A DNA stretch of 64,000 bases from an uncultured Gammaproteobacteria bacterium (GCA_964434235.1 CAYSUN010000001.1:18574-82573), one strand, 5' to 3'; numbered from the stretch's first letter, positions 1-50,517 are shown. The notes: a model not told the origin generated them from the sequence alone. Made by a program: numbers and translations.

Positions 1-59
1 TTGTCGGGGAAATTGTTGGAGGGACTCAAACTTTAGCGAGTGGAACAGAACATAGTCAA

Positions 60-197
60 ATGAAAAAAATAATATTGATTGTGTTTTCGCTTTTACTTGT
101 AATTAATTTATTTTTTCTTGGGAAATATAAAACTCAATTATTGCAAAAATTTATAAAGAAAGTTCCTTGGTTCAAGGGTCGCCCAGCCCTTGAATAA
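60..197 (+). CDS. possible small hydrophobic peptide (45 aa, MKKIILIVFSLLLVINLFFLGKYK...)
   Basis: Short ATG..TAA ORF upstream of the VirB6-like gene with one predicted TM segment; read by eye, not in the ORF track (<60 aa); no recognisable SD. Confidence 0.15.
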   Translation: MKKIILIVFSLLLVINLFFLGKYKTQLLQKFIKKVPWFKGRPALE

Positions 198-288: not shown

Positions 289-3200
289 ATGCTCAGTCAG
301 TTCAAGAAAATTTTTCATAGCCTTAGTGATAAACTGGGAAAGATATTCCGCTTTGTTAGGTTTTTGATTTGGCCAAAAAATAAGTGGGTCGGTAGGTTGA
401 TGCCTTTTGGTTTTGTGGCTGGTTTGCTTCCATTGACTGTTCATGCTGGTTTGTCTGAATTTCTTCTGTTCTTATTAAATTTCCTTTTATTTAAAATTGC
501 TCAATTGCTGGGTTGGATTGTTATGCAGATATTCGGAGTAGTTTTGATTGTTTCATCTTATAATAATTTTGTTACTCATCCAGCAGTTATCAAAGGTTGG
601 GTCTTGATGCGCGACATGTGTAATTTGTTTTTTGTGATGATTTTGCTTGTTATTGCTTTCATGGTTATTTTGCAAGTTAAAAAGTATGAGCCAACAAAAA
701 TGCTGTACCGAGTAGTGTTAGCTGCAATTTTGGTTAATTTTTCTAAATTGATTTGTGGTATAGTTATAGATTTTGCTCAGGTTGTAATGATGACTTTTGT
801 TAATGGATATGCAGCTTCAGCTGGTGGTAATTTAGTTAATGCTTTAAATTTGGATAGTTTATTATCGCTCAGTACTGATGAAAATATGGACACTGAAGCT
901 GCTTTCCAGATAACAGTAGCCATGATAGCAGCGATTGTTGTTTTAGTGGCGACTATTGTCGTTGTTTTCTTTATTTTAATTTTGTTAACACTTCGAATAA
1001 CTCAATTGTGGATATTAGTAGTTTTATCTCCATTTGCTTTTACTTTGGAAGCAGTACCAGTAGGGGGGTTTCAACAGCAAGCGTCCAAGTGGTTTACTCA
1101 ATTTGGTTGGACAGTAGCAGTTGGTCCGTTTATGGCTTTTTTCCTTTGGCTTAGTTTACTTGTTATGTCTGATCCTGGAGCAATAGTTGGAGACCTGAGT
1201 ACAGCTAGAAAAGTTCAATCAGTTAATAAGGCAAACTTTACTGATACGGGTGGCCATGCAACGGCCACAACAATGGAAGGTCTAACTCAAGCGGCTATTG
1301 GTTTGTCTATGCTTTTTGGTTCATTGATGATTGCTCAGGAAGCTGGAGGTATGATCGGTGATATGGCTTCAAAGGGTGTAGCTTCAACAAAATCAGCTAC
1401 AAAGTGGGCTGCTAATAAAATGACAGGTGGCGTGGCTGAAAAAGGTGGTGCAGCTGTCAAAGGTTATCAAGCAAAACGTAATGAGTTTAAACAATTAAAA
1501 TTGGCTAAATATGGACGAGCAGGAGAAAAAGTTATGGGTCTTCAGGCACAAGCGGGTAGAGTTCCTGGATTTCTTCTTAAAAATGTAGCGAGTGGTATTG
1601 GAGCAGTTGGAAAGGCAATTGATAAAAAGCGAGATGCAGCAAGAACTCCAGAAGAACGAGCAGAAAGAGCTAAAAAGAAAGAAGATAAGGCCAAGAATAA
1701 AAAAAAGAAAAGAGATAACCGAGCTAAACAGATAGACAAATATAAGAATAGCGCTTTCGGCAAAACCATGACAAAAAATTGGCAGAGTACAAATCCTATG
1801 GCTGAGATGTTTGCTAAACGAATTAAAACTGCACACCAAAATACAAAAAATGGTGAAGCAAAAGAATATTTGGCTGGTAAAACATTGGATGAACTAAAAG
1901 AAATTGCTAAAAATACCAGCATGCCTAGTACTATTAGAAATATGGGTGCCTTGGAACTTTCTAGAAAAGGTTATGAGGATGACGGTGATGATGTCGCACC
2001 AAACGAGAGAATGTCTGCTATAGAATATGCTAGAAATGCTCGTAATGATTTAGTTCGGTCTGGTGATAAGGAATCACTAAAAGCGTTTGATGATAATCTT
2101 GAAAAAGGACAGGCTAATATTTTATTCCATATCTCAACTGATGCTGAAAAGACTGCAATGGCTAAAAGGATGCAAAAAGGAGACTTGGAGATGAAAAGCC
2201 AGGGGCCAGAAGCTTTTGGAGATGTTGAGTTTATGGATTTTTATCGTAAAACGGTTGGAAACAAAAAATTTACTTCGACTATAAAAGATGCGTCTGGACG
2301 TGGTGAAGCTTATAGTGATGCAGTTAAAGGCTCCATGCCAAATATGGCTGAGCGTGTACATGTAGATTTAGCTGAACGTGGAAGTGCCGAAGGAATACAA
2401 AGAGAATTTGATTCACGCAAAGCCAAGTTGGATAAACAAATACAAGATGCGGAAATTTTAGGCAAGCCAGATGATGTCGCAAGATTGAAAACTGAAAAAA
2501 ATAAATTAGATCTCAATGGTGTTGGTGCGGAGATTAGAAAACAAATTGAAAAAGATCGAGATGGCTTTCAAAATACTCAAGCTTCAATTACTGGTAGTCT
2601 TGAGGATGCTTTTGGTGATAGAGATAATACAACTGGTAAATTAGATGGAAACATGTCATCTAAGGCGTTAGAAAAAATGGCAAAATATATAAAAAAGTCT
2701 GCAGGAAAAAATTTGGCTAATCTGGGTATTGATAAGTCAGCTGAGAAGGCAGAGAGCGAGGATCCAGATAGTGACAAGAAACCATCTACATCAACTATAG
2801 ATACTTTAGCGGATAACGTGAGCGAAAATCAATTAGTTCAAATGCTTAGGTCTGGTGAGGATGGAGCTGGTGACAAAGTTAATATTCTAGTAAGTAGAAT
2901 GTTGACTAGAGCAGACGATCCGGAAAATTCTAACTTAAAGGCGAGGTTGCAAACAATGTTACAGAAAAATAATGAGATAGTTGGTAGTTTAGATGATGAT
3001 GTCAGAAGGCGGGCGACGGAAAATTTCCCACCGGCCGAACCAAAGGCTGACAAAAAGGACGACAAAGATAATAAAGATCAACAAGGGCAACAAGCTTCAA
3101 GCGGGGACAATGCTCAATCTGGAAGTGGTCAAGATAAACCTCAATCTAAATCTAAACCTAAACCACAGGCTCAATCCCAGGCTGATAGCAGTAGTTATAC

Positions 3201-3438
3201 TTATAAAATTGGTGAGCCAGTTGAAATTAAGGGTGATGATGGCACAGTTCAGAAGTGTGAATATGCTGGGCAAGCAAACACGCAAGGTCATGTAAGAATT
3301 AAACAACAAAATGGCGATGTTATTGAAAGAAAATTAGACACTGTTTTGTTTACTAATAAAGTAATAGCTGAAAACATGAGAAAAGATCGAGATGCATTTA
3401 TGAAAAATAGATCTGGTGGTTATGATACTCAAGCATAA
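289..3438 (+). CDS. polytopic membrane protein, VirB6/TrbL (ConG/TcpH)-like type IV secretion component with a long charged C-terminal extension
   Basis: About 8 hydrophobic helices in the first ~330 aa, followed by a ~700-aa K/E/D/Q-rich hydrophilic tail with a small C-terminal beta domain. This architecture (N-terminal 7-8 TM plus a long C-terminal domain) is typical of Gram-positive VirB6 homologues. It sits in an operon with PrgI-like and VirB4 genes. Confidence 0.5.
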   Translation: MLSQFKKIFHSLSDKLGKIFRFVRFLIWPKNKWVGRLMPFGFVAGLLPLTVHAGLSEFLLFLLNFLLFKIAQLLGWIVMQIFGVVLIVSSYNNFVTHPAVIKGWVLMRDMCNLFFVMILLVIAFMVILQVKKYEPTKMLYRVVLAAILVNFSKLICGIVIDFAQVVMMTFVNGYAASAGGNLVNALNLDSLLSLSTDENMDTEAAFQITVAMIAAIVVLVATIVVVFFILILLTLRITQLWILVVLSPFAFTLEAVPVGGFQQQASKWFTQFGWTVAVGPFMAFFLWLSLLVMSDPGAIVGDLSTARKVQSVNKANFTDTGGHATATTMEGLTQAAIGLSMLFGSLMIAQEAGGMIGDMASKGVASTKSATKWAANKMTGGVAEKGGAAVKGYQAKRNEFKQLKLAKYGRAGEKVMGLQAQAGRVPGFLLKNVASGIGAVGKAIDKKRDAARTPEERAERAKKKEDKAKNKKKKRDNRAKQIDKYKNSAFGKTMTKNWQSTNPMAEMFAKRIKTAHQNTKNGEAKEYLAGKTLDELKEIAKNTSMPSTIRNMGALELSRKGYEDDGDDVAPNERMSAIEYARNARNDLVRSGDKESLKAFDDNLEKGQANILFHISTDAEKTAMAKRMQKGDLEMKSQGPEAFGDVEFMDFYRKTVGNKKFTSTIKDASGRGEAYSDAVKGSMPNMAERVHVDLAERGSAEGIQREFDSRKAKLDKQIQDAEILGKPDDVARLKTEKNKLDLNGVGAEIRKQIEKDRDGFQNTQASITGSLEDAFGDRDNTTGKLDGNMSSKALEKMAKYIKKSAGKNLANLGIDKSAEKAESEDPDSDKKPSTSTIDTLADNVSENQLVQMLRSGEDGAGDKVNILVSRMLTRADDPENSNLKARLQTMLQKNNEIVGSLDDDVRRRATENFPPAEPKADKKDDKDNKDQQGQQASSGDNAQSGSGQDKPQSKSKPKPQAQSQADSSSYTYKIGEPVEIKGDDGTVQKCEYAGQANTQGHVRIKQQNGDVIERKLDTVLFTNKVIAENMRKDRDAFMKNRSGGYDTQA

Positions 3439-3450
3439 TAATTTATTAAA

Positions 3451-5013
3451 ATGACTACAAATAAAAAAACAATTCCAGTACTAAAACAAATAGAACTACC
3501 AGAAAACGTAGCCAATGCTTTGTATAGCGAATTCGGTTATTCTTTAAATAATCAAATTAATAATGAACATGAATTAACTGTTATTCAAAGTTTTTCACTT
3601 GTGAAATTGCAAAATGATTTGTTTTTCAAAAAAGTTGAAGTGTCTGATATTGTACAAGAAATAATTGAGTGTTTGGGTATAAATAAAATCAAGGCAAAAA
3701 AAATTGCTTTAGATGTTTTGGGTAAAAAAATGTTATTACTTGATACTAAGTGGTTTGAGGGCGAAGTAAGTAAAAAAATAACCGAGCTTGGTGGAAATGT
3801 CAAAGATTATAAAGAAATCACTAATAAGTATATTGAAGAGGTTGTCCAAGAAACATTTTATCGTGAATTGTCAGAACAAAAAGAAAAACAAGCTGAAGAG
3901 GCGGAAAAATTAAGTCTTGTGGAAGAGATTGAAGCAGAGGCAGCGGTAGTTAAAGATCCTGAAGGAGAGAAAAAAGCAGCGATCGAAATATTTAGTAATA
4001 AGCTCAAAGATTTGTTGTATGTTAATGATTATGTGTTGAAAATTGAATTAAATATTAGATTGATTACGTTGCTTTTGCAAGAAATGGATGAAGGTGAATT
4101 AAAATCTTTTCATAGCAACTTGTTAAAAGCGATAAAAGAAAATCAAGAATTGATTACTGAACAAAAGATTAATTTAAAAGGCGAATTAGTCGAGCCAACT
4201 GTGGCTAATTGGGTCAAAAATTTTATTCGTGAAGTTGGTTTGGAGGGATCTCAAGTAAACTCATTGAAAAAAGCTAAATATTTAAGTAGCGCTGATAATA
4301 TTCAAGGTTTAAATGAAAACGAGAAAAGAGCAGTTGGTAATTTGTTTTTCCTTTATACTGCCCTAGAAACTTTTTACATTTTGGTGGAAAAATCTGGCAT
4401 TGATGATGTTCTGATACTGCAGTTAACTCCAGAAGAACAACAAGAGTTGAAGCAAGATGTGAAAAAAGCTGAAGAAGAAGATGACAAACAGTCAAAAACA
4501 AAATTAAATGAAGCTGGTGAATCAAAACCTGTGGATATTATGCAGTTGTATTTAGGTAGAGCTGAAGATAGAGAAAAAATCGACACAATTAAACAGCAAT
4601 TATCAATAGATACTCGTCGAGAATACGATAAAGTGGCTGATTACTTGAATGAAAATTTAAAGTCTAGATTTAAATTAAATATTATTGCGGCTATTGAGCT
4701 TTTGGCAGAAATTGGGTCGCTTGATGATTTACTTGCTCACGATGAAAGATATCAAGCGTATATGTACGGATTTTTTAAGCGTAATAATTTACAAGGTGAA
4801 GAAATCGAGTTCAAAAAAAATCCAGTGCAAGCTAAGTACGTTCAATATTTCTTAATGTTTGTATTTATGGAAAGACTTGGAATGAATAATGACAAAGCTG
4901 CTAGATTGGCTGCTAATGTTTCTCAAATATTTATGGCTCAAGGTGTTAGTCAATATGCTCAATTAGCGTACCTTGATTTGAATGATCATCAATTTAAATG
5001 GAGTGATTTATGA
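3451..5013 (+). CDS. hypothetical protein (acidic, coiled-coil-rich) of the T4SS-like operon
   Basis: 520-aa ORF 12 bp downstream of the VirB6-like gene; no motif recognised. Confidence 0.5.
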   Translation: MTTNKKTIPVLKQIELPENVANALYSEFGYSLNNQINNEHELTVIQSFSLVKLQNDLFFKKVEVSDIVQEIIECLGINKIKAKKIALDVLGKKMLLLDTKWFEGEVSKKITELGGNVKDYKEITNKYIEEVVQETFYRELSEQKEKQAEEAEKLSLVEEIEAEAAVVKDPEGEKKAAIEIFSNKLKDLLYVNDYVLKIELNIRLITLLLQEMDEGELKSFHSNLLKAIKENQELITEQKINLKGELVEPTVANWVKNFIREVGLEGSQVNSLKKAKYLSSADNIQGLNENEKRAVGNLFFLYTALETFYILVEKSGIDDVLILQLTPEEQQELKQDVKKAEEEDDKQSKTKLNEAGESKPVDIMQLYLGRAEDREKIDTIKQQLSIDTRREYDKVADYLNENLKSRFKLNIIAAIELLAEIGSLDDLLAHDERYQAYMYGFFKRNNLQGEEIEFKKNPVQAKYVQYFLMFVFMERLGMNNDKAARLAANVSQIFMAQGVSQYAQLAYLDLNDHQFKWSDL

Positions 5014-6230
5014 TATCTAATTTACAAGATGGCTATGTCTTGGTCAAAGATAAGGATGGAGAACTGAAATATTACAAAGAGGGAAAATTCTTCAGTATTG
5101 CAGAAATAGAAAAACAAAGACAAATAGCTTTACAAAAAAATACTAGTCCGAAAGAAAAAGTAGAACTTAAACCTGCTTATAGTTTTGATACTGTTAAACG
5201 TTCGGTTCAAGTTAAACAACCAGATCAAGTGAAGCAATCAGTTCAAGTTAGGCAACTGCCTGAAGATATAAGAAAAGAATTAAGAAAAATTGGTCCAGAA
5301 ATAGAAATCCCTAAATCGCACAAAAAACCTATTTTTCCGAGTAAATTGAAACCCTTGGATCTTGAACCAGAAGAGTTGAAACCGCACAGTGATTTTCATG
5401 AAAGAAGAAATCAAGATCAAGAATTGGTGCAAAAAAAAGTTGACGAAGTGATTGAAAGATTGAAAATTAAATTTAGTGATTCAAGTATAGAAAAAAGATT
5501 TAGAAATATTCTTCTAACTTATTTTCGTGGTATTCGTAAAGACAAAGAATTAGTCTATGTGCTTGGTTTGCCTAAAATAAGTGGTGGCATGGAATTGGAT
5601 GACACGAAGATTAAGATTATTTTGTCAGTTATTAACCAGCATGTGGAAGAATTAGAAAAAGATAGAAGACATTTGGCCAGTAAACCGTTGGCTGATGATA
5701 TTCAAGCGGTTGCTGATATGGAGCATAGATTGGCTCCACCACCACCAGCGATTATTCAAGATAATTCAAAGAATAATCAAGTGGAAAAAAATAGATTTCA
5801 GGCTAGGACTATGCCTAAGCCAGCTATTCAGCGTCCAACGCCAGTTAGTTTGAGTGCTAAAAGACCAGATAGACCGACAATTACAGATATAAAAAGAAGA
5901 CGTTTAATTGGGCCAGTCGAAGAACTTGAAATGATGAATATAGAAAATTTAAGAAGATTGGGAGAGAATGAACATGAAATTATGGAAGAAGTTTTGGAAA
6001 AAATTCAGATTTTAGCAGAGCAATCTTTATTAAAAAAGATTGAAGGTATTAATGCGTGGAAAAGTTCAGCTATCTATAAACTTTATTTGCAAATGACCTA
6101 TGAAGCTATTGTGAATAAGCGAAGTATTGCTGATATTATTGAACAACGGCAATTGAAAAATCAAGAAACTTTAACTTTAAGTGAATATGAAATGTTAGGA
6201 AATATAAATTCTAAATTGAATCTAGCCTAA
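5010..6230 (+). CDS. hypothetical protein with Pro-rich linker, T4SS-like operon
   Basis: ATGA start/stop overlap with the upstream gene (translational coupling); contains PPPPA and repeated VKQSVQV motifs. Confidence 0.5.
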   Translation: MISNLQDGYVLVKDKDGELKYYKEGKFFSIAEIEKQRQIALQKNTSPKEKVELKPAYSFDTVKRSVQVKQPDQVKQSVQVRQLPEDIRKELRKIGPEIEIPKSHKKPIFPSKLKPLDLEPEELKPHSDFHERRNQDQELVQKKVDEVIERLKIKFSDSSIEKRFRNILLTYFRGIRKDKELVYVLGLPKISGGMELDDTKIKIILSVINQHVEELEKDRRHLASKPLADDIQAVADMEHRLAPPPPAIIQDNSKNNQVEKNRFQARTMPKPAIQRPTPVSLSAKRPDRPTITDIKRRRLIGPVEELEMMNIENLRRLGENEHEIMEEVLEKIQILAEQSLLKKIEGINAWKSSAIYKLYLQMTYEAIVNKRSIADIIEQRQLKNQETLTLSEYEMLGNINSKLNLA

Positions 6231-6231
6231 T

Positions 6232-6690
6232 ATGCAACAATTTTTAGTCCCACAATTTATTGACGTTGAAGACAAAATCATCGGTCCTATTACCACAAGA
6301 CAGTTTGTGGAAGTTTTGGCGGGTGTTTTGTTTACTTTTATTTTTTATAAACTTTTAGCTTTTACATATTTTATTTTTGCAGCAATAATTATTTTGCCTT
6401 CAACTGGAATTATTGCTTTTGCAAAAGTTAGTGGACGGCCAATTCATTTTTTCTTGTTAAACTTTTTGCAAACTAGTAAAAGGCCAGCTCTTCGAGTTTG
6501 GAATCGGGCAGCCTATGTTAAGCAAGTTCAAGAAATAAAAAGTGAAATTAAGGAAAAGCCAAAGCCCCAGATTGTTAAAAATGTAATTTCCGGTTCAAGG
6601 TTAAGAGACGTTTCTTTGATTGTTAATACTGGTGGCGTTTATGAGTCGCATGAACCTGTTGTTGATGATAAATTAATGGCTAATAAATAA
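6232..6690 (+). CDS. PrgI/VirB3-like small membrane protein
   Basis: N-terminus FIDVEDKIIGPITTRQFVEVLAGVLF followed by two TM helices resembles the PrgI-family (Gram-positive VirB3) signature; immediately precedes the VirB4 genes, as PrgI precedes PrgJ. Confidence 0.5.
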   Translation: MQQFLVPQFIDVEDKIIGPITTRQFVEVLAGVLFTFIFYKLLAFTYFIFAAIIILPSTGIIAFAKVSGRPIHFFLLNFLQTSKRPALRVWNRAAYVKQVQEIKSEIKEKPKPQIVKNVISGSRLRDVSLIVNTGGVYESHEPVVDDKLMANK

Positions 6691-6724
6691 ATTTATATAA
6701 GTTAACATAAGATTATCAAGAAAT

Positions 6725-7393
6725 ATGGCTACAAAAAGCAGAATAACAACATCAACACAACTTTTTTTGGATATTGCAGAAATAAAAAATAATACTGTAA
6801 TAATGAAAGATGGAACACTTCGAGCAGTTTTAATGGTTTCAAGTGTCAATTTTGCCCTTAAATCTGAAGATGAGCAAGAAGCTTTGGTTTCTTCTTATGT
6901 AACCTTTTTGAATTATTTAGATTTCCCATTACAAATAGTAATTCAATCCAGGAAATTGGATATTGATAACTATTTAAAGAGAATAGAAGTTGCAGAAAAA
7001 GATTTAACTAATGAATTGCTTAAAAAACAAATAGTTGATTATAAAAATTATATTAATGAATTGGTTGAACTTGGTGATATTATGACTAAACATTTTTTTG
7101 TTGTTGTGCCGTACAGTGTTTTGGAAAGCAAGAAAAATGGATTTTTTGATAAAGTAGGTGCAGTTTTCACTCCGGCAAGAGTAATTCGTCTTAAAACTGA
7201 TAAATTTGAAAAATATTTACATGATTTAAATCAAAGAGTTGAGCATGTTTCTTCTAATATTACTTCACTTGGCATTACAGCAGTTCGATTGGATACCCAA
7301 AGTTTAATAGAGCTTTATTATAATGTTTATAATCCTGTTATGGCCAAGAGCCAAAAATTAGTAGATATTGATGAGCTAAGGGTAGAAAGATAA
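6725..7393 (+). CDS. VirB4/TraC-family N-terminal domain, encoded as a separate ORF
   Basis: FLDIAEIKNNTVIMKDGTLRAVLMVSSVNFALKSEDEQEALVSSYVTFLNYLDFPLQIVIQS matches the conserved N-terminal region of CagE/TrbE/VirB4-type ATPases; ends with TAATAA, 33 nt before the ATPase ORF. Confidence 0.5.
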   Translation: MATKSRITTSTQLFLDIAEIKNNTVIMKDGTLRAVLMVSSVNFALKSEDEQEALVSSYVTFLNYLDFPLQIVIQSRKLDIDNYLKRIEVAEKDLTNELLKKQIVDYKNYINELVELGDIMTKHFFVVVPYSVLESKKNGFFDKVGAVFTPARVIRLKTDKFEKYLHDLNQRVEHVSSNITSLGITAVRLDTQSLIELYYNVYNPVMAKSQKLVDIDELRVER

Positions 7394-7426
7394 TAATTTA
7401 TAATTTTAAATCTTGTATAATAAAAT

Positions 7427-9334
7427 ATGTTTAAACCCAATGATGTCAAGAAAAAACCAGTTTCTTCTGAGATACCAATTCCTAAATTAGAAATACTTAA
7501 CGAAACTGCTTCTATTAAAAATGAGGAAGTAAAAGCTTCAAAACAAAAAGAAGTTTTGGAACAAGAAAAAACGTATCGTAAGGGAATAACTTCGGTTTTG
7601 GATATAGTTGCTCCGGCTGCGTTTGAAGTAAATCCTGATCATGTTCGAATTGGCGGACTTTTTGCTAGAACTCTTTTTGTCATGACTTATCCAAGATATA
7701 TTAACGTTGGTTGGTTTTCTCCAGTTATAAACTATAACGCAACTTTGGATATTAGCATGTTTTTTTATCCAATTGAGGCTGGTGTAGTTTTGAAACAATT
7801 AAAAAATAAAGTTGGTATTTTAACAGCCCAGTTAACTTCAGATTCAGAAAAAGGAGCTCCTCGTGATCCACTTAGAGAAACAGCCCTTCAAGATATTGAG
7901 CAACTTCGAGATGATATTACTCAGGGTACTGAAAAGTTTTTTCAATATGCGTTATATGTAACTTTGTATGAAAAAACTATTAGTGAGTTGGATGTTTTAA
8001 CTGAAGACGTTGAAACTGTACTGGGAACAAGGTCAATAATTTCTAAACGGGTATTTTATCAAGCAGAGCAAGGCTTTAATTCAACAATTCCTATTTCTAA
8101 TGATGAATTAATGATAACTGCTAATCTTAATTCTTCCCCAATTGCTGCTTCATTCCCATTTATGTCCTCGGAGCTTACTTCTGATGATGGAGTTTTATTT
8201 GGTATTAATCGACATAATAACAGTTTAATTTTGTTCGATCGATTTTCTTTGCAAAATGCTAATGCCTGTGTGTTCGCTACTTCTGGAGCTGGTAAAAGTT
8301 ATACTATAAAACTGGAAATTTTGCGGAGTATGATGCTTGGAACAGATGTGATTATTATTGATCCAGAAAGAGAATATAAAAATTTGAATGACGCGGTTGG
8401 TGGAACTTATGTAAATATTTCCTTGAATTCTGATAGTAAAATTAATCCTTTTGATTTACCTCGAAAAATGGGTGATATGTCGGCGGCTGATGTTATCCGA
8501 AGTGCAGTCATTACTTTGAAAGGTTTAATGCGAATTATGCTTGGAAAAATGACTTTTCAAGAAGATTCTATTATGGATAGAGCTTTAATTGAAACTTATG
8601 CTAAAAAAGATATTACTGGTGAATCTGATCTAACCACAATCGAACCACCAATTATGCAGGATTTGTATGATGTTCTTGATGGAATGGATGGTGGAGCTGA
8701 TTTAGCTTTACGTTTGAAAAAATATACTTCGGGAACATTTTCTGGTTTATTTAATTCACCGACTAATGTAGACATGGCCAATCAATTAGTTTGTTTTAGT
8801 GTGCGTGACTTGGAAGATGAACTTCGACCAATGGCAATTTATAACATTGTTAATTATATTTGGAATGTAGTTCGATCGGAAGTAAAAAAGAGAATTTTGG
8901 TAATTGATGAAGCTTGGTGGTTATTGCAACATGAAGATTCAGCAAAATTTATTCACGCTTTAGTAAAAAGATGTCGTAAATATTATTTGGGAGTTACAAC
9001 TATTACACAGGATGTAAATGATTTTCTTTTGTCTCAATATGGTCAAGCGATTGTAACAAATTCAGCTTTGAAAATTTTGTTAAAACAAGCTCCTTCAGCT
9101 ATGGATTTGATTCAAAAAACTTTTCAATTAACTGAAGGTGAAAAATATTTACTTTTAGAATGTAATGTTGGTGAAGGAATTTTCTTTGCTGGTAGTCGTC
9201 ATGCTGCGATGAAAGTTGTGGCTTCTCCGCTTGAAGATAGAATGATTACAACTGATCCTCGACAGTTGTTAGCACAGGAAAAACAGAGAGAAGAAGAAGA
9301 GGCTAAGGAAGCTGAAAGAGAAAATACAGTTTGA
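7427..9334 (+). CDS. virB4: VirB4-like type IV secretion ATPase (central and C-terminal ATPase part)
   Basis: Walker A FATSGAGKSYT; Walker B ILVIDEAWWLL (the DEAW motif typical of VirB4/TraC); N-terminal region with the PRYINVGWFSPVIN..LDISMFFYPI motif seen in Gram-positive VirB4 (TcpF/PrgJ-like). Confidence 0.8.
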   Translation: MFKPNDVKKKPVSSEIPIPKLEILNETASIKNEEVKASKQKEVLEQEKTYRKGITSVLDIVAPAAFEVNPDHVRIGGLFARTLFVMTYPRYINVGWFSPVINYNATLDISMFFYPIEAGVVLKQLKNKVGILTAQLTSDSEKGAPRDPLRETALQDIEQLRDDITQGTEKFFQYALYVTLYEKTISELDVLTEDVETVLGTRSIISKRVFYQAEQGFNSTIPISNDELMITANLNSSPIAASFPFMSSELTSDDGVLFGINRHNNSLILFDRFSLQNANACVFATSGAGKSYTIKLEILRSMMLGTDVIIIDPEREYKNLNDAVGGTYVNISLNSDSKINPFDLPRKMGDMSAADVIRSAVITLKGLMRIMLGKMTFQEDSIMDRALIETYAKKDITGESDLTTIEPPIMQDLYDVLDGMDGGADLALRLKKYTSGTFSGLFNSPTNVDMANQLVCFSVRDLEDELRPMAIYNIVNYIWNVVRSEVKKRILVIDEAWWLLQHEDSAKFIHALVKRCRKYYLGVTTITQDVNDFLLSQYGQAIVTNSALKILLKQAPSAMDLIQKTFQLTEGEKYLLLECNVGEGIFFAGSRHAAMKVVASPLEDRMITTDPRQLLAQEKQREEEEAKEAERENTV

Positions 9335-9344
9335 AAACAAAAAA

Positions 9345-9982
9345 ACACTTAATCACTAAAACAAGAAATCAATAAAACATAAAAACAAGAAAACAAGGAA
9401 AAGAAAGATTCAAGTAACAAGCAAAACAGAACACGGAACACAAAACACGGAACATTAATCATAGAACATAGATCATAGAACAAACACTTAAGATGGTTTA
9501 GCACTGCCAACTCTTACCGCATCCCTTTAGGGTGCGTAGAACTTAAAACAAGGTTAAAAAGGCAGTAAAACCACTCCCTACCTGTCTATCGGTTTACATG
9601 CCGGAGGTATGCAGGCAGGCGTAATAAACACTTAAGCTGGTTTATTGCTTACTGTTTAACATTTAATGTTTAATATTTATTTACTTAATACTTAATCATA
9701 GAACATAGAATATAGATCATAGAGCATCAAATCAATAAATCATTTAAACACTTAATCACTAAAACAAGAAGTCAAGGAAAAGAAAGATCCAAGTAACAAG
9801 AAAAATTTAATACTTACTACCTGCCTGCCGGTTTACGTGCCGGAGGTGTGCAGGCAGGCTTAACACTTACTTTTTACTTTTAACTTTTAATTTTTAACTT
9901 TTTCAATTTACTGTTTATTTACTTAACACTTAATACTTAACACTTAACACTTACTTTTAACTTTTAACTTGTAACTTTTAAT
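9345..9982. repeat. tandem intergenic repeat block: two copies of a ~55-80 bp unit, each followed by a GC-rich hairpin, plus ACTTAA/CTTTTAA-type micro-repeats
   Basis: Unit ACACTTAATCACTAAAACAAGAA..GGAAAAGAAAGATYCAAGTAACAAG at 9345-9421 and 9748-9800; hairpin CCTGCCTGCCGGTTTACRTGCCGGAGGTRTGCAGGCAGG at ~9577-9619 and 9830-9858. Confidence 0.8.
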
Positions 9983-10561
9983 ATGGAACAAAGAAAAAAA
10001 ATTATATTAATCATTGTCGTTGGTGTTTTGATTATAGCGGGAATTATAACTTGGTTTGTAATTTCTGAAAAAAAAGCTAATTCAACATCAACGGAAACTG
10101 ATACTGTTGCTACTCTTTCGGGTAAACCAGTTGATGAAAAAAAAGCAATTGTGGCAGTAGCACCAACTCAAAAAGAAAAAGTGGAAGTTTCAGTTAAATC
10201 AGTTGTTACAACTTTTGTTGAGAGATTTGGAAGTTTTTCCAATCATGCTAATTTCTTTTCAGTCGAAGATATTGTACCAATGATGACAAGTTCTATGGCT
10301 AGTTGGGTACAAAATACTTATTTGCCAACATTAAGAAGAGAGTATGATCCACAAGGTTTTTATTATAGTGTACAAACAACTGCTCCTGTTGTGAGAATTT
10401 TGAAAGAAGAAGGTAATTATATGGAGATAATGGTAGAAACCCAAAGAGTTGAAGATAGAGAAGGACAAAAACAAAATTTTAATCAAGCTATTAAAATAGA
10501 TTTAGTTAAAAGTGGTGAGGAGTGGCTAGTTGATGGAGCATTTTGGCAAAAACAAGAATAA
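9983..10561 (+). CDS. hypothetical membrane-anchored protein
   Basis: N-terminal TM helix (ILIIVVGVLIIAGIITWFVI) followed by a soluble domain. Confidence 0.5.
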   Translation: MEQRKKIILIIVVGVLIIAGIITWFVISEKKANSTSTETDTVATLSGKPVDEKKAIVAVAPTQKEKVEVSVKSVVTTFVERFGSFSNHANFFSVEDIVPMMTSSMASWVQNTYLPTLRREYDPQGFYYSVQTTAPVVRILKEEGNYMEIMVETQRVEDREGQKQNFNQAIKIDLVKSGEEWLVDGAFWQKQE

Positions 10562-11258
10562 ACTAAAACGGCTATTCGAAAAAGTACTCAGTTATATTTT
10601 CCCAATTGAGTGTGTTAGCTGTCAAAAAGAGGGGGAGTATATTTGCTCCGCCTGTTTTGCTCAAATAAAACTGATTGAAAACTTTAGTTGTTTTATATGC
10701 AATCAAGGATCATTTGCCAAAGGTATTTGTCCCAAGTGTGAAGAAACCACTAGCATAGATCAAATAATTGTGGCTACAACTTATCAAGATAATATTGTTG
10801 GTAAGCTGGTTGAACAATTTAAGTACAATTATTTAGAAGATACCAAATATCTACTTAGTCGAGTCTTGATAAAACAAATTGAACAGAAAGAATTAACTAA
10901 TGTTTTGCGTAATAAAGTTTTAGTACCAGTGCCTTTGCACAAAAAAAGATTAGCGGAAAGAGGGTTTAATCAAGCGGAAGAATTAGCTAAATTATTAGCA
11001 GTTAAGTTTGATTCTCAGGTTAATACTACAATTGTGAGGAGAGTTGCTAACACAAAACAACAAGCAAAATTGAACAGAAAACAACGTTTGCAAAATCTTA
11101 TAAATGCTTTTAGAATAGATAGTGAAGGCAGTTGGCCTGAAGAAGTAATTCTCATAGACGATGTTTTAACTACGGGTACAACATTTACTGAGTTATGTAA
11201 ATGTCTTAAGAAAAATGGTGTTAAAAAAGTTGTTTGTATTGCTATTTGTCATGGATAA
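10530..11258 (+). CDS. comFC: ComF-family protein (phosphoribosyltransferase-type, ComFC-like)
   Basis: N-terminal Cys cluster (CVSCQKEGEYICSAC, CFICN, CPKCE) and C-terminal PRTase motif VILIDDVLTTGTT; true start may be an internal Met because the ORF overlaps the upstream gene. Confidence 0.7.
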   Translation: MMEHFGKNKNKLKRLFEKVLSYIFPIECVSCQKEGEYICSACFAQIKLIENFSCFICNQGSFAKGICPKCEETTSIDQIIVATTYQDNIVGKLVEQFKYNYLEDTKYLLSRVLIKQIEQKELTNVLRNKVLVPVPLHKKRLAERGFNQAEELAKLLAVKFDSQVNTTIVRRVANTKQQAKLNRKQRLQNLINAFRIDSEGSWPEEVILIDDVLTTGTTFTELCKCLKKNGVKKVVCIAICHG

Positions 11259-21969: not shown

Positions 21970-22527
21970 ATGAAAGTTATTCAAAACAAAATCGAGGGTG
22001 TTTTTGAATTTATTGCGACTGATATTGAAGAAACTAAAGTTCTAAGAAAATTGATCAAAGCTTGTAAACCTGGAAATAAATTGAATTATGGTGGATATAT
22101 AGATAATCCGGATAATTCTAGGAGTTTGAATTTCCATTTTGGAGCGAAGAAAAAAATACAAAGAAAAAGAATTAGTGCTTATGCTACTTTGAAAATTATT
22201 GTGCCAGTGGGTGGAATACAGTTGAGTTTAGCTGGAAATGATAAGGAAGATTTAGATAATATTAGGACCTTGCGTGATATTTGTCGTTTGGGGTCAGATG
22301 AGGTCATTTTTCTTAGCGGAACTGAGATTGATGGTTTAGTATCTATCGTTATTGCACCTAGCAATTGTAAGGTTTGTGGAGCTAAAATTGCTGATCTTGT
22401 AAGTTCTGAATTTAATATTTGTGAAACGTGTGCTGGTAACTGTGAGCATGAGTATGAGGAAATATATGTTCGAGGTGTTGGTTTTCGTGATTTTTGTGGA
22501 TTGTGTGGACGAATGAAAGGAGCGTGA
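21970..22527 (+). CDS. Cys-rich hypothetical protein, tandem paralogue A (CxxC..CxxCxxxCxH..CxxC)
   Basis: About 50% identical to the following ORF over its whole length; C-terminal CKVCGAKI..CETCAGNCEHEY..FCGLCGRMKGA. Confidence 0.55.
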   Translation: MKVIQNKIEGVFEFIATDIEETKVLRKLIKACKPGNKLNYGGYIDNPDNSRSLNFHFGAKKKIQRKRISAYATLKIIVPVGGIQLSLAGNDKEDLDNIRTLRDICRLGSDEVIFLSGTEIDGLVSIVIAPSNCKVCGAKIADLVSSEFNICETCAGNCEHEYEEIYVRGVGFRDFCGLCGRMKGA

Positions 22528-22528
22528 T

Positions 22529-23152
22529 ATGAAAATTATTCATGATGAAAAAGAGGGTGTGTTTGTTTTTATTGCGAGAGACGTTGAGGAAACAGAAGTT
22601 TTGAGAAAGTTGATCAAGGCTTGTCAACGAGGAAATAAATTGGATTATGGTGGGCGAAAAACAAATCCGGATAATTCTATGAGTTTAGATTTTTATTTTG
22701 GAGCTAAGGAAAAAGAAGTAGTAAGAAGACTTAGTGAGTGTTGTATTATAATTGATACAGTGCATGTGGGTGGTATACATTTAAGGTTGAAAGGAATCGA
22801 AAATCAAGATCAGAATAATGTTAGAGCATTGCGTGATTCCTGCTATTTCGGATCAGGTGAATTAACTTTTCTTCGTGGGACAGAGATTGATGGTTCAAAA
22901 GCTATTATTGTTGTAGCAGGTTATTGTAAAGTTTGTGGAGGTAAAATTACGGATTCGGGTAGTTGTGAATATAGGGTTTGCAAAAAGTGTGCTGATAAAT
23001 GTAATCATCAATATGTTCATGGATATATTCATGGTGGAGAAATATCACTTGGTAGGGGGGTGTATTGTGAATTGTGTGGACGAGTGAAAGATAATGAAAA
23101 CGTTTTTCCGATTCTTAAACAGGGAGAATCTGGCATTGTGGAAATTTTGTAA
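22529..23152 (+). CDS. Cys-rich hypothetical protein, tandem paralogue B
   Basis: MKIIHDEKEGVFVFIARDVEETEVLRKLIKAC.. parallels paralogue A; CKVCGGKI..CKKCADKCNHQY..YCELCGRVKD. Confidence 0.55.
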   Translation: MKIIHDEKEGVFVFIARDVEETEVLRKLIKACQRGNKLDYGGRKTNPDNSMSLDFYFGAKEKEVVRRLSECCIIIDTVHVGGIHLRLKGIENQDQNNVRALRDSCYFGSGELTFLRGTEIDGSKAIIVVAGYCKVCGGKITDSGSCEYRVCKKCADKCNHQYVHGYIHGGEISLGRGVYCELCGRVKDNENVFPILKQGESGIVEIL

Positions 23153-28657: not shown

Positions 28658-29989
28658 TTATAATAAATTTAATAATTGATTAACTTCTGTAACTTGAATA
28701 GAATTATTTTGTTTTTTAGGAATTATAATATTTTTAAATCCTAATTTTTTAGCTTCCTGAACTCTTTTTTCTAAATTGATAACCGACCGAACTTCACCAC
28801 CAAGTCCAATTTCACCTATGGCAATAGTATCTTTGCTAATGGGTTTATTTCTGAAAGCTGAAATAATAGCGAGAGCAACAGCTAGATCAATAGCTGGTTC
28901 AGTTACTTTTAATCCGCCGACAATATTTAAATGAATATCTTGATTGTTTAGATTGATATTCGCTCTTTTGAATAAAACGGCTGAAAGCATTTGCAATCTA
29001 TTTTGATCGTAGCCCGACGTTTTTCTTTGCGGATAACCAAAAATAGTTGGAGTGACCAGAGCTTGGACTTCAATCAGAAAAGCTCGAGTACCTTCCATAA
29101 AACAGGAAGTTACAGTTCCAGGTGTGATATTTGTTTCATTGGAAAGGAATGCTTTTGTTGGATCTTTTACTTCAGCTAAACCTTTGTCCGTCATTTCAAA
29201 AACCCCGATTTCATTAGTTGAGCCAAAACGATTTTTACTACTTCGAAGTAATCGGAAACCGTGTAATTTATCTCCTTCCAAGTATAAAACTGTGTCAACT
29301 AAATGTTCTAATGTTTTTGGGCCAGCCACCGAGCCATCTTTAGTAACGTGCCCAGTAATTAAAATTGGGATGTTGTTTTGTTTGGCTGTTTGCAAAAGTT
29401 TAACGGTGCAAGCTCGTATTTGGCTAACATTGCCTGATTCAGAATCAACATCTGATGAATAAACAGTTTGAATTGAGTCAATTATTGCGATGCTGGGGTT
29501 GATTGTTTTTATAGCCACGCAAACTTCTTCAATGTTTGTTTCACTTAAAAATTTTAAATTGATAGGTTTATAACCCAGTCGATCAATTCGAAGTTTTATT
29601 TGGCTGGCAGACTCTTCACCTGAAATATAAAGCAGGGGAGCGTTTTGATTTTCTAGACTTTGCAATATTTGTAGAACTAGAGTTGATTTTCCGATACCTG
29701 GTTCGCCACCGAGAAGAGTAATGCTTCCTTTGACAATTCCACCACCAAAGATTTGATCAATTTCTACTAAATTGGTTTTCATTCTTTCAAAGTGTTCAAG
29801 TTTAATGTCGTTAAAATCAGTTAATTTCCCAGAGTCAAATTGTAGTTCTTGTTTTTTTGATTTTTTGATTTTTTGATTTACTGACTCTTGAATTGTTCCC
29901 CAAGCACCACACTCAAGACAGCGTCCTGACCACTTAGGAAACTGTGCATCGCATTTTGAACAGGTGAAGATTGTTTTAATTTGAGCCAT
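28658..29989 (-). CDS. radA: DNA repair protein RadA/Sms
   Basis: N-terminal zinc finger CSKCDAQFPKWSGRCLECGAW, Walker A GGEPGIGKSTL, RadA signature KNRFG, Lon-protease-like C-terminal domain. Confidence 0.9.
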   Translation of the reverse strand: MAQIKTIFTCSKCDAQFPKWSGRCLECGAWGTIQESVNQKIKKSKKQELQFDSGKLTDFNDIKLEHFERMKTNLVEIDQIFGGGIVKGSITLLGGEPGIGKSTLVLQILQSLENQNAPLLYISGEESASQIKLRIDRLGYKPINLKFLSETNIEEVCVAIKTINPSIAIIDSIQTVYSSDVDSESGNVSQIRACTVKLLQTAKQNNIPILITGHVTKDGSVAGPKTLEHLVDTVLYLEGDKLHGFRLLRSSKNRFGSTNEIGVFEMTDKGLAEVKDPTKAFLSNETNITPGTVTSCFMEGTRAFLIEVQALVTPTIFGYPQRKTSGYDQNRLQMLSAVLFKRANINLNNQDIHLNIVGGLKVTEPAIDLAVALAIISAFRNKPISKDTIAIGEIGLGGEVRSVINLEKRVQEAKKLGFKNIIIPKKQNNSIQVTEVNQLLNLL

Positions 29990-30003: not shown

Positions 30004-31377
30004 TTATTTAATGGTAATTGGACAAGTCCCTGCACCAGGCACAGCTTGAAATAATTTCTCAGCATGGTATTTGTCAATTATTCTTTGTTTTCCAGCTTTT
30101 CGAACTGAAACAGCTTTACCAGCCCCAAACATTTCACCACCAATCGCAGCTTCTTCTAGATTTTTATAATTACCACCAGTCCATTTGCTATTTTGATAAC
30201 CGCCATCACCAGCAGTACATTCTGACTTACCTTTATCAAAAGCATTTTCTTTGCAACGTTTGACAATTAATTGTTTCCAAGATTCAGTTAGTCCTTTTTC
30301 AATATTTGTACCACCATTACAACCTCCAAGTTTAAGTGTGTTACCAAGACTGGCCGTTCCACTGTTGTGATAAAGATAAAGTAAAGTGGCAATATCAGAA
30401 TCACTTAATTTACTAAGATCGCCTTTACAAATAGTATTAATCTTTTTTATGGCGAGCATAGTCATGCCAGTTACACCCATTACCTGAACTTTATCTAAAA
30501 TAAGGCGTGAATCATTTTTTAGTATAGGACTAGTTGATACCCCGATTTGGTTTAAGTAATAGGCAGTATCTGCCCCGCCTGTCCAGCCTTTCATTGACGC
30601 TGTCCAAGTGTCATATTTGAATTGGTACAAACCTTTGAAACAAGCACAATTTACTAATCCAGGTCTAAAGCCAGATTCATGTTCACACATTCCCACTAGA
30701 ATATTATAATTGAAGTTACCGCAAGCAGCAAAGTCTTTCATGAGTTGAACTAGTGAGTTTTTGTCTGGATGAGGATCACTATTTGTTGGCACACCGCAGT
30801 ATTCAAGAACTGAGTTTTTAGGGGCAGGACATTTACCACCTGATCCACCACTTATCCAGCCTTCTCCATCTGCTTTTTCCGCATAAACTGGATCTATGTT
30901 AAAATCCAGTGGAATGTTTTCAATTAAAGTGGTTTTTAGATTGGTTAAATTTGGATTAATTGTGTTCAAAATAATGTTTGTAATTAATAAAATTACTAAA
31001 CCTAATAAAGCGCTGGTCATCATTGATTTTGATTTTTGTATACCTGCTGGATAAGCACCAGCTAAAACATAAAAAAGTCCACCAATCATAAAGACAAGAG
31101 TCGCCACAATAGAGCCCAAAATTATACCATAATTGTAAATACCAACTAGATATTCAACAATCCAAGGTGATGAAGAAAATTTTCCTCCTTCAACCATAAC
31201 TTTTGATAAAGATGGCATGTTGGGAATTGGAATGCTGATTTTAGGTTGAATGGCTTCTTTTGCTTTACTTTCTGATGTGGTTGTTGCGCTTTGTGCAGAA
31301 ACAGAAGGAACCAAACAAATGCTAACGAGAAGACAGGTTAGGCTAAATAAGAATAAAATTTTAGTTTTATTTCTCAT
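30004..31377 (-). CDS. secreted/membrane-anchored protein with lytic-transglycosylase (SLT)-like domain; N-terminal signal plus two-helix module shared with the next gene
   Basis: SLT-like motif GMCEHESGFRPGLVNCACFKGLYQFKYDTW (ES..GLMQ-type); N-terminus is signal peptide + WIVEYLVGIYNYGIILGSIVATLVFMIGGLFYVLAG + ..ALLGLVILLITNIILNTINPNL. Confidence 0.5.
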   Translation of the reverse strand: MRNKTKILFLFSLTCLLVSICLVPSVSAQSATTTSESKAKEAIQPKISIPIPNMPSLSKVMVEGGKFSSSPWIVEYLVGIYNYGIILGSIVATLVFMIGGLFYVLAGAYPAGIQKSKSMMTSALLGLVILLITNIILNTINPNLTNLKTTLIENIPLDFNIDPVYAEKADGEGWISGGSGGKCPAPKNSVLEYCGVPTNSDPHPDKNSLVQLMKDFAACGNFNYNILVGMCEHESGFRPGLVNCACFKGLYQFKYDTWTASMKGWTGGADTAYYLNQIGVSTSPILKNDSRLILDKVQVMGVTGMTMLAIKKINTICKGDLSKLSDSDIATLLYLYHNSGTASLGNTLKLGGCNGGTNIEKGLTESWKQLIVKRCKENAFDKGKSECTAGDGGYQNSKWTGGNYKNLEEAAIGGEMFGAGKAVSVRKAGKQRIIDKYHAEKLFQAVPGAGTCPITIK

Positions 31378-31418: not shown

Positions 31419-33770
31419 CTATTTTGCAATATAACCTTTGTTGGTTTTGTACCAGTTAGATGTTCCAGCTCCACACTGTTTTAAATCTACAACGCCAGTA
31501 ATTGCTTCAGATGGGGTAAGTGCTTTTTCACACGTTCCACCAGGTGTGAATGTTCCCTTCAGATTTACGCAGGTTTCAGGACTTGTTTTTATGCCGTTTT
31601 CGGGATTTGTCAATCCTAGGGAATAAGCAATTAAATCGCTTTTGCAACAACCAGATTCGCCTGCATCTAAATTATCTTCGGGGAAAAACACAATGTTTGC
31701 AACTGTTCCTGATCCTCCGCCATGGACACATTGATTTGTTGATCCTGCATTTGATGAAATTGGATTTAAGTTTTCGATGGTGCCATTTCCATTACTAACA
31801 CATTTACTCATTAAATCATTTTGCTTATATGTGTCTTTGTTGGCTTTAGGACAACCTGTTGCAGCACATTCTGATGACCAGCCTGTGTTTGATTCAACTA
31901 TTTTTCCTTCGCCTAGTGAAATAAATACATGTTGAAGTGTGCCACCGTTACATCGGAACATTGCTCCGGCCGGAAGTAGACTTGGATATTTTGATGCAGC
32001 CCCACCACCAACAATAAGAGCTTTCCATCTTAAGTCAGTTAGTTGAGGTCCTAAGGCTCCAATACAAGTAGCGCCTGGTAGTTTGCAACCAGAGTTTTTT
32101 AAAATTCTTGAAGATATTTTAGCACAACTATTTGGCGCTGTGAGGAAGTCTTTTGCATTAGCCCAAGCAGTACCAACATTTTTTATGTCAGTTGAAGTGC
32201 ATTTCAAAAGTGAATTGTAGCAACCTGTACCACTATTGAATTTAGAGTAATCTGGAAATTTGGATGCATCCGCTTCTGGACATTCCCCAGTTGAAGGATC
32301 AAAGTTGGGTGGGTTGTAAGCGCTATCATCTGCCGTTGTTAAATTAGCTGCTATTCCATATTCACCTGGTTTATAAAAATAGGTAGAATCTGCTATTCCG
32401 CAATCATCCCAGATGTCTTGAGCAGAGGCTGTTTTTAGACCTCGGTGAACTGGATCATTTATACCATATACTCCTCCAGAATAACTGGTTAAAACTATGT
32501 AATGACCATTTTTAGTGAATTTGCACTTTGGATGATCTCTTCCAATTGACCTAATTATAACTGGAATTCCTTTTGAAAGTAATTCAATAAGTTTTGGGTC
32601 ATCTTTTGGTCTGTTCCAAACAGATTCTGATTTTAGTCCGTTTGCAGTAGCCAATTCTGCCATCCCTTTGTCATCAAAACCACAACAAGTCTGAGCTTTG
32701 CTTCCAGAAACAGAGCCAGCTGGTGCGCGGATGCCATTTAGCTGTATCCATTTAGCAACGTCAGGTGGAGTAACACTAATTCCATAATAGTTCAAAACCA
32801 TTGCAGATGAAGTTAGTCCACAGCCAGAAGATTGAATCACGTTAGTGTTGGGAGTGCCACCAGTGCTATTTGTCATTTTTGAATTTTTACAAAATTCTAC
32901 AAAATTATTTGCGCCCCATGGGTTTTTACTACACCACGCTGAATCTTTGACATTTGGATTGTTACAAAGTTCAGAAACTTTGTAAGTCTTTTCTAGCCAT
33001 TCACAGTAATTTACATCAGTTTTAGGATATTTGTCATTTTTAAATTTACAAGAAAAAATACCAAATTGAGGTGGGTTAGAAATGCCTGGCATTTCCATTT
33101 TGTAACCCGCAGTACCACAGGCGACCGCATATTTACCTAGGCCAGGAACTTCAACCTTACCATTTTGATAACTGCAATTATTGCCAGTTAGAGGATAACA
33201 TGCCCATTGTATGTCAGTCTGAGCATAGTAAACAACTTTTCCTGTGCCAGTTGGGGTGTTTGTTACTGGAGTATTTGCAAATTCACTTTCATTGATTACT
33301 CCATCTGAGACAGATTCAATTAGCGTTGTTTTTAGATTTACTAGATTGGGGTTTATTGTATTCAAAATAATGTTTGTGCACATGAGAATAACCAGACCGA
33401 TTAAAGCACCAGATATCATTGATTTAGCTTTTTGTATTCCTGATGGATTTGCGCCTGCCAGAACATATAATAATCCACCAATCATCAAAATCAGTGTAGC
33501 CACGATTCCTCCAAAAATTATTCCATAGTTATAAATTGCAACTAAATAATCAACGATCCAATTGGTTACATATGTTTGACCAGGAGTGAATTTAATGCTA
33601 TCCCAGGCATCTAGACCAGGAATTTCTACACGAACTTTCGGAGCTGGTAGTTCAACTTCTTCCTGCACTTTTTGACTGTATGTGAGATGAAGAGGTATTA
33701 AAATGAAAACAAAAATAATAATTGTTGAAAGAATGATTTTTTTATAATATTTTTTTTTTGTTTTTGTCAT
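31419..33770 (-). CDS. large Cys-rich secreted protein with peptidase-C39-like (papain-fold) domain; shares N-terminal two-helix module with 30004-31377
   Basis: SSGCGLTSSAMVLNYYG resembles the C39/C39_2 catalytic-Cys motif; the N-terminal ~110 aa are paralogous to the downstream gene. Confidence 0.5.
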   Translation of the reverse strand: MTKTKKKYYKKIILSTIIIFVFILIPLHLTYSQKVQEEVELPAPKVRVEIPGLDAWDSIKFTPGQTYVTNWIVDYLVAIYNYGIIFGGIVATLILMIGGLLYVLAGANPSGIQKAKSMISGALIGLVILMCTNIILNTINPNLVNLKTTLIESVSDGVINESEFANTPVTNTPTGTGKVVYYAQTDIQWACYPLTGNNCSYQNGKVEVPGLGKYAVACGTAGYKMEMPGISNPPQFGIFSCKFKNDKYPKTDVNYCEWLEKTYKVSELCNNPNVKDSAWCSKNPWGANNFVEFCKNSKMTNSTGGTPNTNVIQSSGCGLTSSAMVLNYYGISVTPPDVAKWIQLNGIRAPAGSVSGSKAQTCCGFDDKGMAELATANGLKSESVWNRPKDDPKLIELLSKGIPVIIRSIGRDHPKCKFTKNGHYIVLTSYSGGVYGINDPVHRGLKTASAQDIWDDCGIADSTYFYKPGEYGIAANLTTADDSAYNPPNFDPSTGECPEADASKFPDYSKFNSGTGCYNSLLKCTSTDIKNVGTAWANAKDFLTAPNSCAKISSRILKNSGCKLPGATCIGALGPQLTDLRWKALIVGGGAASKYPSLLPAGAMFRCNGGTLQHVFISLGEGKIVESNTGWSSECAATGCPKANKDTYKQNDLMSKCVSNGNGTIENLNPISSNAGSTNQCVHGGGSGTVANIVFFPEDNLDAGESGCCKSDLIAYSLGLTNPENGIKTSPETCVNLKGTFTPGGTCEKALTPSEAITGVVDLKQCGAGTSNWYKTNKGYIAK

Positions 33771-50513: not shown

Positions 50514-50517
50514 TAGT

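Follow-up and report, generated by a model that had tools for sequence, protein, structure and literature searches.

The window analysed here, a stretch of 64,000 nucleotides (CAYSUN010000001.1:18574-82573), carries near its start a seven-gene operon that very probably encodes the chromosomal type IV secretion system (T4SS) found in the majority of Patescibacteria, the ultra-small bacteria of the CPR. It probably falls within a clade akin to MPF_FATA, a class of mating-pair-formation (MPF) machines of monoderms, and has the gene arrangement of the ABY1 group (Falkowbacteria, Kuenenbacteria and relatives); the machine is likely non-conjugative and would transfer macromolecules between an epibiont and its host cell in a contact-dependent manner. 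The system is already known from papers of 2023-2025, and the present analysis refines the picture in small ways but reveals nothing new in kind. An initial annotation, made from the sequence alone, had described a firmicute-type T4SS module with VirB6-, VirB3- and VirB4-like proteins. In substance this was right, as the profile tests for VirB4 and for the PrgI/VirB3-like protein are positive. Its class label, MPF_FA, does not hold, since the published phylogeny places the clade in MPF_FATA (PMC12102498).

The comparative frame is a VirB4 scan of one genome per species, which found more than 500 relatives; the comparisons below use the best 80 loci, in which the proteins of the window were placed by tblastn. 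Searches made use of Pfam, NCBIfam, PDB, Foldseek, Rfam and hhalign. VirB4 is 67-82% identical to its orthologues in these 80 species, and the named genomes among them are all metagenome-assembled genomes of Patescibacteria (Falkowbacteria, Kuenenbacteria, Buchananbacteria, Magasanikbacteria, Parcubacteria), relatives that we take to be the ABY1 group in GTDB terms. Judged by these similarities, the window comes from a Falkowbacteria-like member of the Patescibacteria, within the ABY1 group. An alternative genetic code of the Gracilibacteria/SR1 type (UGA read as glycine) is ruled out. TGA ends two of the genes (3451-5013 and 7427-9334) and therefore the standard bacterial code applies; the length of VirB4 (635 aa, the orthologue median) also counts against the UGA-glycine code.

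The first six plus-strand open reading frames (ORFs) of the operon (Table 1) are separated by 12, -4 (an ATGA overlap), 1, 34 and 33 nt, and the tight six-gene operon of the initial annotation is thus borne out. All six of its genes stand, and it missed a seventh syntenic one, the VirB8-like gene. The order around VirB4 (o1-o7) recurs in up to 80 Patescibacteria species: the 222-aa TrsD-like protein is in place in 80/80 loci, the PrgI/VirB3-like protein in 78, orphan 2 and the VirB8-like protein in 73 each, the VirB6-like protein in 43 (a count limited by the many contigs that stop short of this gene) and orphan 1 in 41. Since the gene order is repeated in 80 other species-level genomes, it is not a chance pattern of ORFs. 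The initial annotation had allowed that its VirB4 might prove to be an ATPase of the HerA/FtsK type with no T4SS genes beside it in related genomes; instead the T4SS neighbours are kept in 80 of them.

Table 1 Features of the window. Positions count from its first nucleotide; o1-o7 denote the operon genes in order.
Feature	Position	Strand	Length	Remarks
3' end of upstream gene	3..197	+		C-terminal transmembrane tail of ~745-aa surface protein; context, not part of the T4SS
Terminator-like hairpin closing upstream gene	170..195	+		10-pair stem, then T-rich tail
o1, extended VirB6-like polytopic membrane protein	289..3438	+	1049 aa	N-terminal membrane domain of ~350 aa, variable hydrophilic tail of ~630 aa
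o2, orphan 1, conserved	3451..5013	+	520 aa	Acidic, no transmembrane segment, presumed cytoplasmic
o3, orphan 2, conserved	5010..6230	+	406 aa	No transmembrane segment; start overlaps previous stop (ATGA)
o4, PrgI/VirB3-like small membrane protein	6232..6690	+	152 aa	Hydrophobic hairpin ~aa 25-66; PF12666
o5, TrsD-like protein	6725..7393	+	222 aa	VirB4 N-terminal region as separate polypeptide; NCBIfam matches
o6, VirB4 ATPase	7427..9334	+	635 aa	Remainder of N-domain and P-loop C-domain; conju_CD1110, 4AG5, Walker motifs
Long repeat spacer	9335..9982		648 nt	Two ~239-nt repeats
o7, VirB8-like bitopic protein	9983..10561	+		N-terminal transmembrane helix, disordered linker, C-terminal NTF2-like domain
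comF	10530..11258	+		ComFC-like phosphoribosyltransferase with double zinc ribbon; Pfam Pribosyltran and DZR_2
Candidate distal T4SS accessory	30004..31377	-	457 aa	VirB2/T4SS-pilin-like module with two transmembrane segments, C-terminal domain of no known family; PF18895 16.6 bits (gathering 26.6)
Candidate distal T4SS accessory	31419..33770	-	783 aa	T4SS-pilin-like module and C39-like cysteine peptidase domain; PF18895 25.9 bits (gathering 26.6), Peptidase_C39_2 E 1.5e-16

VirB4 is the most firmly identified component. It scores 358 bits against NCBIfam conju_CD1110 (cut-off 325; model positions 175-729 of 752), 103 bits against Pfam P-loop_TraG (E 1.5e-29) and 43.9 bits against AAA_10, and it matches the VirB4 of the Firmicute Thermoanaerobacter in PDB (4AG5, E 3.9e-49). 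The Walker A motif ATSGAGKS (aa 284-291) is kept in 80/80 orthologues and the Walker B motif ILVIDEAW (aa 490-497) in at least 74 of the 80. The VirB4 of the initial annotation, recognised there by GAGKS and DEAW, is therefore confirmed by the family profile and by both motifs, but the enzyme is not contained in one gene, for its N-terminal region sits in the separate fifth gene. The TrsD-like product of that gene covers positions 101-281 of the VirB4_plasma model (E 5.6e-11) and matches TrsD/TraD NF041427 (E 1.9e-5), while the product of the virB4 gene covers positions 263-893 of the same VirB4_plasma model. Adjoining genes thus cover successive parts of one full-length VirB4, which is therefore split.

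Here the TrsD-like and virB4 ORFs are in one frame and are parted by TAA TAA and a further 27 nt. An arrangement of this kind could be read as decay: virB4 would formerly have been full-length, TAA TAA would be a nonsense mutation in it, and the cluster would no longer function. The common frame and the mere 33 nt between the ORFs fit such an event. The comparative data overturn this reading, to which we give virtually no probability. The two are separate ORFs in 80/80 loci and lie in different frames in 52 of them, so that the split goes back to an ancestor and has been kept. Each piece is well conserved (51-76% identity to relatives for the TrsD-like piece, set beside the 67-82% of VirB4), each has its own ATG, the Walker motifs are intact, and split partners of the TrsD type are already a described component.

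The PrgI/VirB3-like protein matches PF12666 at 29.5 bits (gathering score 27). Together with its hydrophobic hairpin, this supports the small two-helix membrane protein that had been proposed at this position. TrsD-like and PrgI/VirB3-like genes both adjacent to virB4 are what is found in T4SS loci of the Patescibacteria clade. The 1049-aa protein encoded by the first gene has six strong hydrophobic segments within residues 70-349, plus weaker ones, giving about 6-8 transmembrane (TM) helices, followed by a tail of 629 residues rich in K, A, D, G and E whose length and sequence are poorly conserved. The polytopic N-terminus and long charged tail of the initial annotation are thereby upheld. 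The membrane domain, with at least five TM helices, is predicted to adopt a VirB6 fold in a structural model built from a 13-sequence alignment. TrbL-type Pfam matches occur only in homologues at 31-44% identity, in 3 of 13 of them (best E 1.6e-6); PF04610 or PF19590 stands as a precomputed annotation on homologues P0003, P0008 and P0009.

The seventh gene was identified by structure. Sequence searches of Pfam and PDB with its product gave no match beyond low-complexity and TM noise. An AlphaFold2 model from a 10-sequence alignment has a TM helix (residues 2-32), a disordered stretch (33-60) and a folded part of three helices plus four antiparallel strands. Residues 61-190 are modelled with a pLDDT of about 95; the conserved domain spans about 125 aa and the linker is variable. 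The top Foldseek match is the VirB8 domain of PrgL from pCF10 (7aed, E 2e-5, 19-21% identity), followed by CagV (TMt 0.74), an IcmL-like protein, DotI, a Rickettsia VirB8-like protein, 8rtd_Y of R388 and TraH of pIP501. We base the VirB8-like assignment on the fold in combination with a bitopic topology and a conserved place directly after virB4.

In this genome virB4 and the VirB8-like gene are 648 nt apart, compared with -4 to 260 nt (median ~30) in 73 related loci. The spacer consists of repeats that are ~80% identical over matching segments, with repeat families D3-D6 spaced 223-239 nt. Each repeat bears a GC-rich hairpin, GCCGGAGGTRTGCAGGCAGG, unusual in a genome of 33% GC; the motif occurs twice where none is expected by chance, and the folding energies are unexceptional (z-scores -1.3 and -2.0). 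The spacer contains no ORF, and an Rfam scan of it gave no match. It looks like a lineage-specific insertion. Three independent metagenome contigs with an identical VirB8-like gene all end 156-635 nt upstream of that gene, which suggests that the repeat spacer disrupts assembly.

The operon starts inside the window. The window opens in the last 64 codons of another gene, whose frame (3-197) is open from the first nucleotides and aligns to the C-terminus of the upstream protein at locus L001 (E 1e-6). This 3' end and the terminator-like hairpin that closes it place the start of the T4SS operon downstream, and an AT-rich spacer of 90 nt then leads to the VirB6-like gene. The initial annotation, which had the operon beginning at the window edge, has to be corrected here. 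In relatives the upstream gene encodes a protein of ~745 aa with a signal sequence, two LTD domains (PF00932, E 4.5e-35), an OB/DUF5689-like region and a C-terminal TM anchor, and it precedes the VirB6-like gene in 12 close relatives (for example L001:436-2682 and L004:143-2377). The upstream check for VirD4 or a relaxase that the initial annotation had proposed thus returned a surface protein, which is neither.

Among the ~59 ORFs scanned in the 64-kb window, none matched a family of relaxases, VirD4/TcpA proteins, integrases or transposases. The initial annotation had likewise seen neither a relaxase nor VirD4 and had pointed to the window edge; the observation stands, but the edge is not the cause, and the absence is a known hallmark of the system. 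The other neighbours are housekeeping genes (murG, divIC, a PpiC-type chaperone, ftsEX, tRNAs), and GC content is uniform over the region, with no anomaly. As far as the scanned ORFs of the 64 kb show, the cluster is accompanied by no relaxase or coupling protein and has a chromosomal context with comF, recG and radA.

These data bear on the possibility that the operon is the mating-pair-formation module of a Firmicute-type conjugative plasmid or integrative and conjugative element (ICE), with relaxase and coupling protein just outside the window. The best VirB4 family, CD1110, is of the C. difficile CTn2 type, and the succession of PrgI, TrsD and VirB4 mirrors operons of the pIP501 and pGO1 types (see also PMC12102498). 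We nevertheless regard a conjugative module as highly improbable. The gene upstream is closed by a terminator-like hairpin and encodes a surface protein in relatives; no relaxase, oriT or coupling protein was found in the window, and no integrase or transposase family among the scanned ORFs; GC content is even; and 80 species share the order of the locus, which lies amid core genes. In the published survey, only 103 of the 3035 genomes of Patescibacteria have a relaxase, seldom close to virB4 (PMC12102498). The lack of a relaxase or VirD4 match in ~59 ORFs and the housekeeping surroundings therefore argue that this is not the conjugation module of a mobile element.

Several points weigh against a chromosomal, non-conjugative Patescibacteria T4SS as read here. 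(i) The placement of VirB4 in the Patescibacteria clade is presumed from its relatives (67-82% identity) and from its best curated family, CD1110/CTn2, an MPF_FATA prototype. (ii) Function and cargo are argued by homology to a distant class, the Saccharimonadia, and are to be read as presumptive. (iii) The VirB6-like protein of the window has no direct match in Pfam (E<=1) or NCBIfam, TrbL PF04610 and TrbL_3 PF19590 included, and its model gives Foldseek E-values of just 0.04-0.09 at a mean pLDDT of 66.6. (iv) The NTF2 fold is common, and NTF2 proteins from outside T4SSs are interleaved among the matches of the VirB8-like model. (v) The operon has no pilin or cell-wall hydrolase; the sole candidates lie ~20-24 kb off and have sub-threshold pilin scores. 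(vi) VirD4 homologues occur far from virB4 in many Patescibacteria (PMC12102498), and 64 kb are covered here.

We propose a mechanism by extension from better known machines. As in VirB-type systems, VirB6 and VirB8 would build a channel in the cytoplasmic membrane and a ring at its outer face, VirB3 and the TrsD piece would dock the VirB4 hexamer to the channel, and ATP hydrolysis by VirB4 would power assembly and the passage of substrate. By analogy with Saccharimonadia, the machine may serve host-dependent growth and not conjugation.

Nucleic acid is a reasonable candidate for the cargo because of the link to comF and radA at the operon level and the LTD/OB protein upstream, a possible surface binder of nucleic acid judging from its domains. 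comF has a TTG start that falls 32 nt before the VirB8-like gene ends (independent gene calls on further contigs give a 29-nt overlap), and is therefore probably co-transcribed with the T4SS operon. On the same strand, the VirB8-like gene is followed next by comF in 40/68 loci and by radA in 13/68 (53/68 together), and recG and radA are each found within 10 kb in 34/73 loci; in the window recG is at 23245-25293 and radA at 28658-29989 on the minus strand. ABY1 loci have been described with comF, recG and radA close by, and functional coordination of these genes with the T4SS has been suggested (PMC12102498).

This linkage speaks for a machine of DNA uptake or exchange, like H. pylori ComB or archaeal Ced, in which single-stranded DNA would be handed to ComFC, RadA and RecG. 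Such a role is a matter of function and does not conflict with what the system is identified as here. The LTD/OB-like surface protein of close relatives could bind the nucleic acid, and VirB4 has weak NCBIfam matches to the Ced ATPases CedB and CedD. However, competence in Southlakia epibionticum needs type IV pili and ComEC, and comEC can be deleted with the cells remaining viable, which is not so for the essential T4SS (PMC12857230). What makes the T4SS essential in that organism is therefore not ComEC-dependent transformation. ComF, RadA and RecG are moreover widespread genes of housekeeping type, whose linkage is not function, and ComEC is not seen in the window. We consider DNA uptake possible but unlikely.

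The two proteins encoded between the VirB6-like and PrgI/VirB3-like genes had been put forward in the initial annotation as lineage-specific T4SS components, and synteny, though nothing else, bears this out. Orphan 1 has no sequence match in Pfam, NCBIfam or PDB; its syntenic counterparts are 22-44% identical, and its homologues, among the matches listed, are all hypothetical proteins. Orphan 2 likewise has no sequence match in Pfam, NCBIfam or PDB, and a Pfam scan of 40 of its homologues yielded no consistent family. For both orphans, profile searches against PDB sequences gave nothing but low-complexity or TM noise. Orphan 2 has conserved regions at ~aa 135-260 and 270-404 with a proline-rich linker between them, and at E<=1e-3 its family takes in 2133 cluster representatives (clustered at 50% identity). 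The orphans are not paralogues of each other by hhalign (probability 0.4%). Both diverge faster than the core genes (22-49% identity), and nonetheless keep their position in the operon.

One conjecture is that the orphans and the detached TrsD piece form a lineage-specific cytoplasmic module for substrate recruitment that replaces VirD4 and relaxase, the ABY1 T4SS moving nucleic acid (DNA or host RNA) with the co-transcribed ComFC/RadA. We hold this proposal to be doubtful. Were it true, the T4SS would serve transformation or feeding by a path separate from that of type IV pili and ComEC. The orphans are the obvious targets for learning how substrates are selected without VirD4.

On sequence resemblance, the tandem pilin-module paralogues listed as distal accessories in Table 1 may provide a pilin and a cell-wall hydrolase, which the operon lacks. 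Their N-terminal modules are 58% identical and their C-terminal domains differ. Related pilin modules are found 1.5-8.5 kb from virB4 in 6/80 related loci. Next to these paralogues, and to a PD40/beta-propeller-like membrane protein, is a 527-aa protein (35097-36680, minus strand) that is nearly all low-complexity (rich in N, Q, E, K, D and S) with a lone hydrophobic segment at its extreme C-terminus and no Pfam match.

Two further regions of the window were noted. A type IV pilus cluster at 48312-55277 encodes a PilD-like prepilin peptidase and three proteins with N-terminal methylation motifs, and encloses an ORF of 1394 aa (50518-54702) with no Pfam match. At 21970-23152 a tRNA gene is closely followed by a pair of neighbouring paralogous ORFs, of 185 and 207 aa, with near-alike N-terminal halves and Cys-rich (CxxC) C-terminal halves; neither has a Pfam match.

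Comparison with characterised systems sets the locus apart from conjugative machines and beside those of other Patescibacteria. R388 Trw and Agrobacterium VirB (MPF_T) share with it the folds of VirB6 (TrwI) and VirB8 (TrwG) and the P-loop domain of VirB4 (TrwK), but VirB5, the outer-membrane core (VirB7, VirB9 and VirB10), VirB11 and a pilus operon are absent here, and identity is 8-15%. The systems of pIP501 and pGO1 (TraC-TraD-TraE; TrsC-TrsD-TrsE) and of pCF10 (PrgH, PrgI, PrgJ, PrgL) are closer, with the same order of VirB3-like, TrsD-like and VirB4 proteins, a VirB6-like protein and a VirB8-like protein of NTF2 fold. They differ in being borne on plasmids or ICEs and in having relaxase, oriT, VirD4-type coupling protein, VirB1-type hydrolase and adhesins in the operon, none of which is in the operon of the window.

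In S. epibionticum, transposon sequencing by Wang et al. 2023 found a homologous cluster to be essential for epibiotic growth (PMC10633639). The order in that cluster (SEML1_0006-0019) is VirB6-like (~1090 aa), NTF2-like, a large hypothetical protein, PrgI, a hypothetical protein of ~290 aa in the TrsD position and a VirB4 of ~610 aa (PMC10633639). Like the locus described here, it has no relaxase or coupling protein within it, and comFC is near. The loci differ in that (i) the NTF2-like gene of S. epibionticum lies between VirB6 and PrgI, has a twin-arginine translocation (TAT) signal and is non-essential, whereas here the NTF2-like gene follows VirB4; (ii) six VirB2-like pilins and two cell-wall hydrolases come right after virB4 in S. 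epibionticum, whereas the window has no pilin array and two fusion proteins ~20 kb off. Essentiality is demonstrated in S. epibionticum only, and for no T4SS other than that of Patescibacteria has it been shown that its owner needs it to grow.

The closest counterpart is the Patescibacteria ABY1-type T4SS (PMC12102498). Of the 3035 Patescibacteria genomes surveyed by Quinonero-Coronel et al. 2025, 2417 have VirB4, and these sequences form a clade nested in MPF_FATA; TrsD is the most frequent partner of VirB4, alongside PrgI/VirB3 and VirB6, VirB2-like pilin genes are near virB4 in many but not all genomes, and VirB8 homologues are few (~50 in a profile survey) and mainly from ABY1 (PMC12102498). 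A 2025 review calls the Patescibacteria T4SSs unique among monoderm T4SSs. The locus of the window is alike in its MPF_FATA-related VirB4, in the adjoining TrsD-like and PrgI/VirB3-like genes, in the nearby VirB6, in its chromosomal position and in having no relaxase, and there is no real difference in kind. To the published ABY1 picture our comparison adds that the VirB8-like gene nearly always follows virB4 (73/80 loci), that the split of VirB4, seen in 80/80, is not that of a pseudogene, that two large orphan families, one with more than 2000 cluster representatives, are constant in the operon between VirB6 and PrgI, and that this genome carries a 648-nt repeat insertion.

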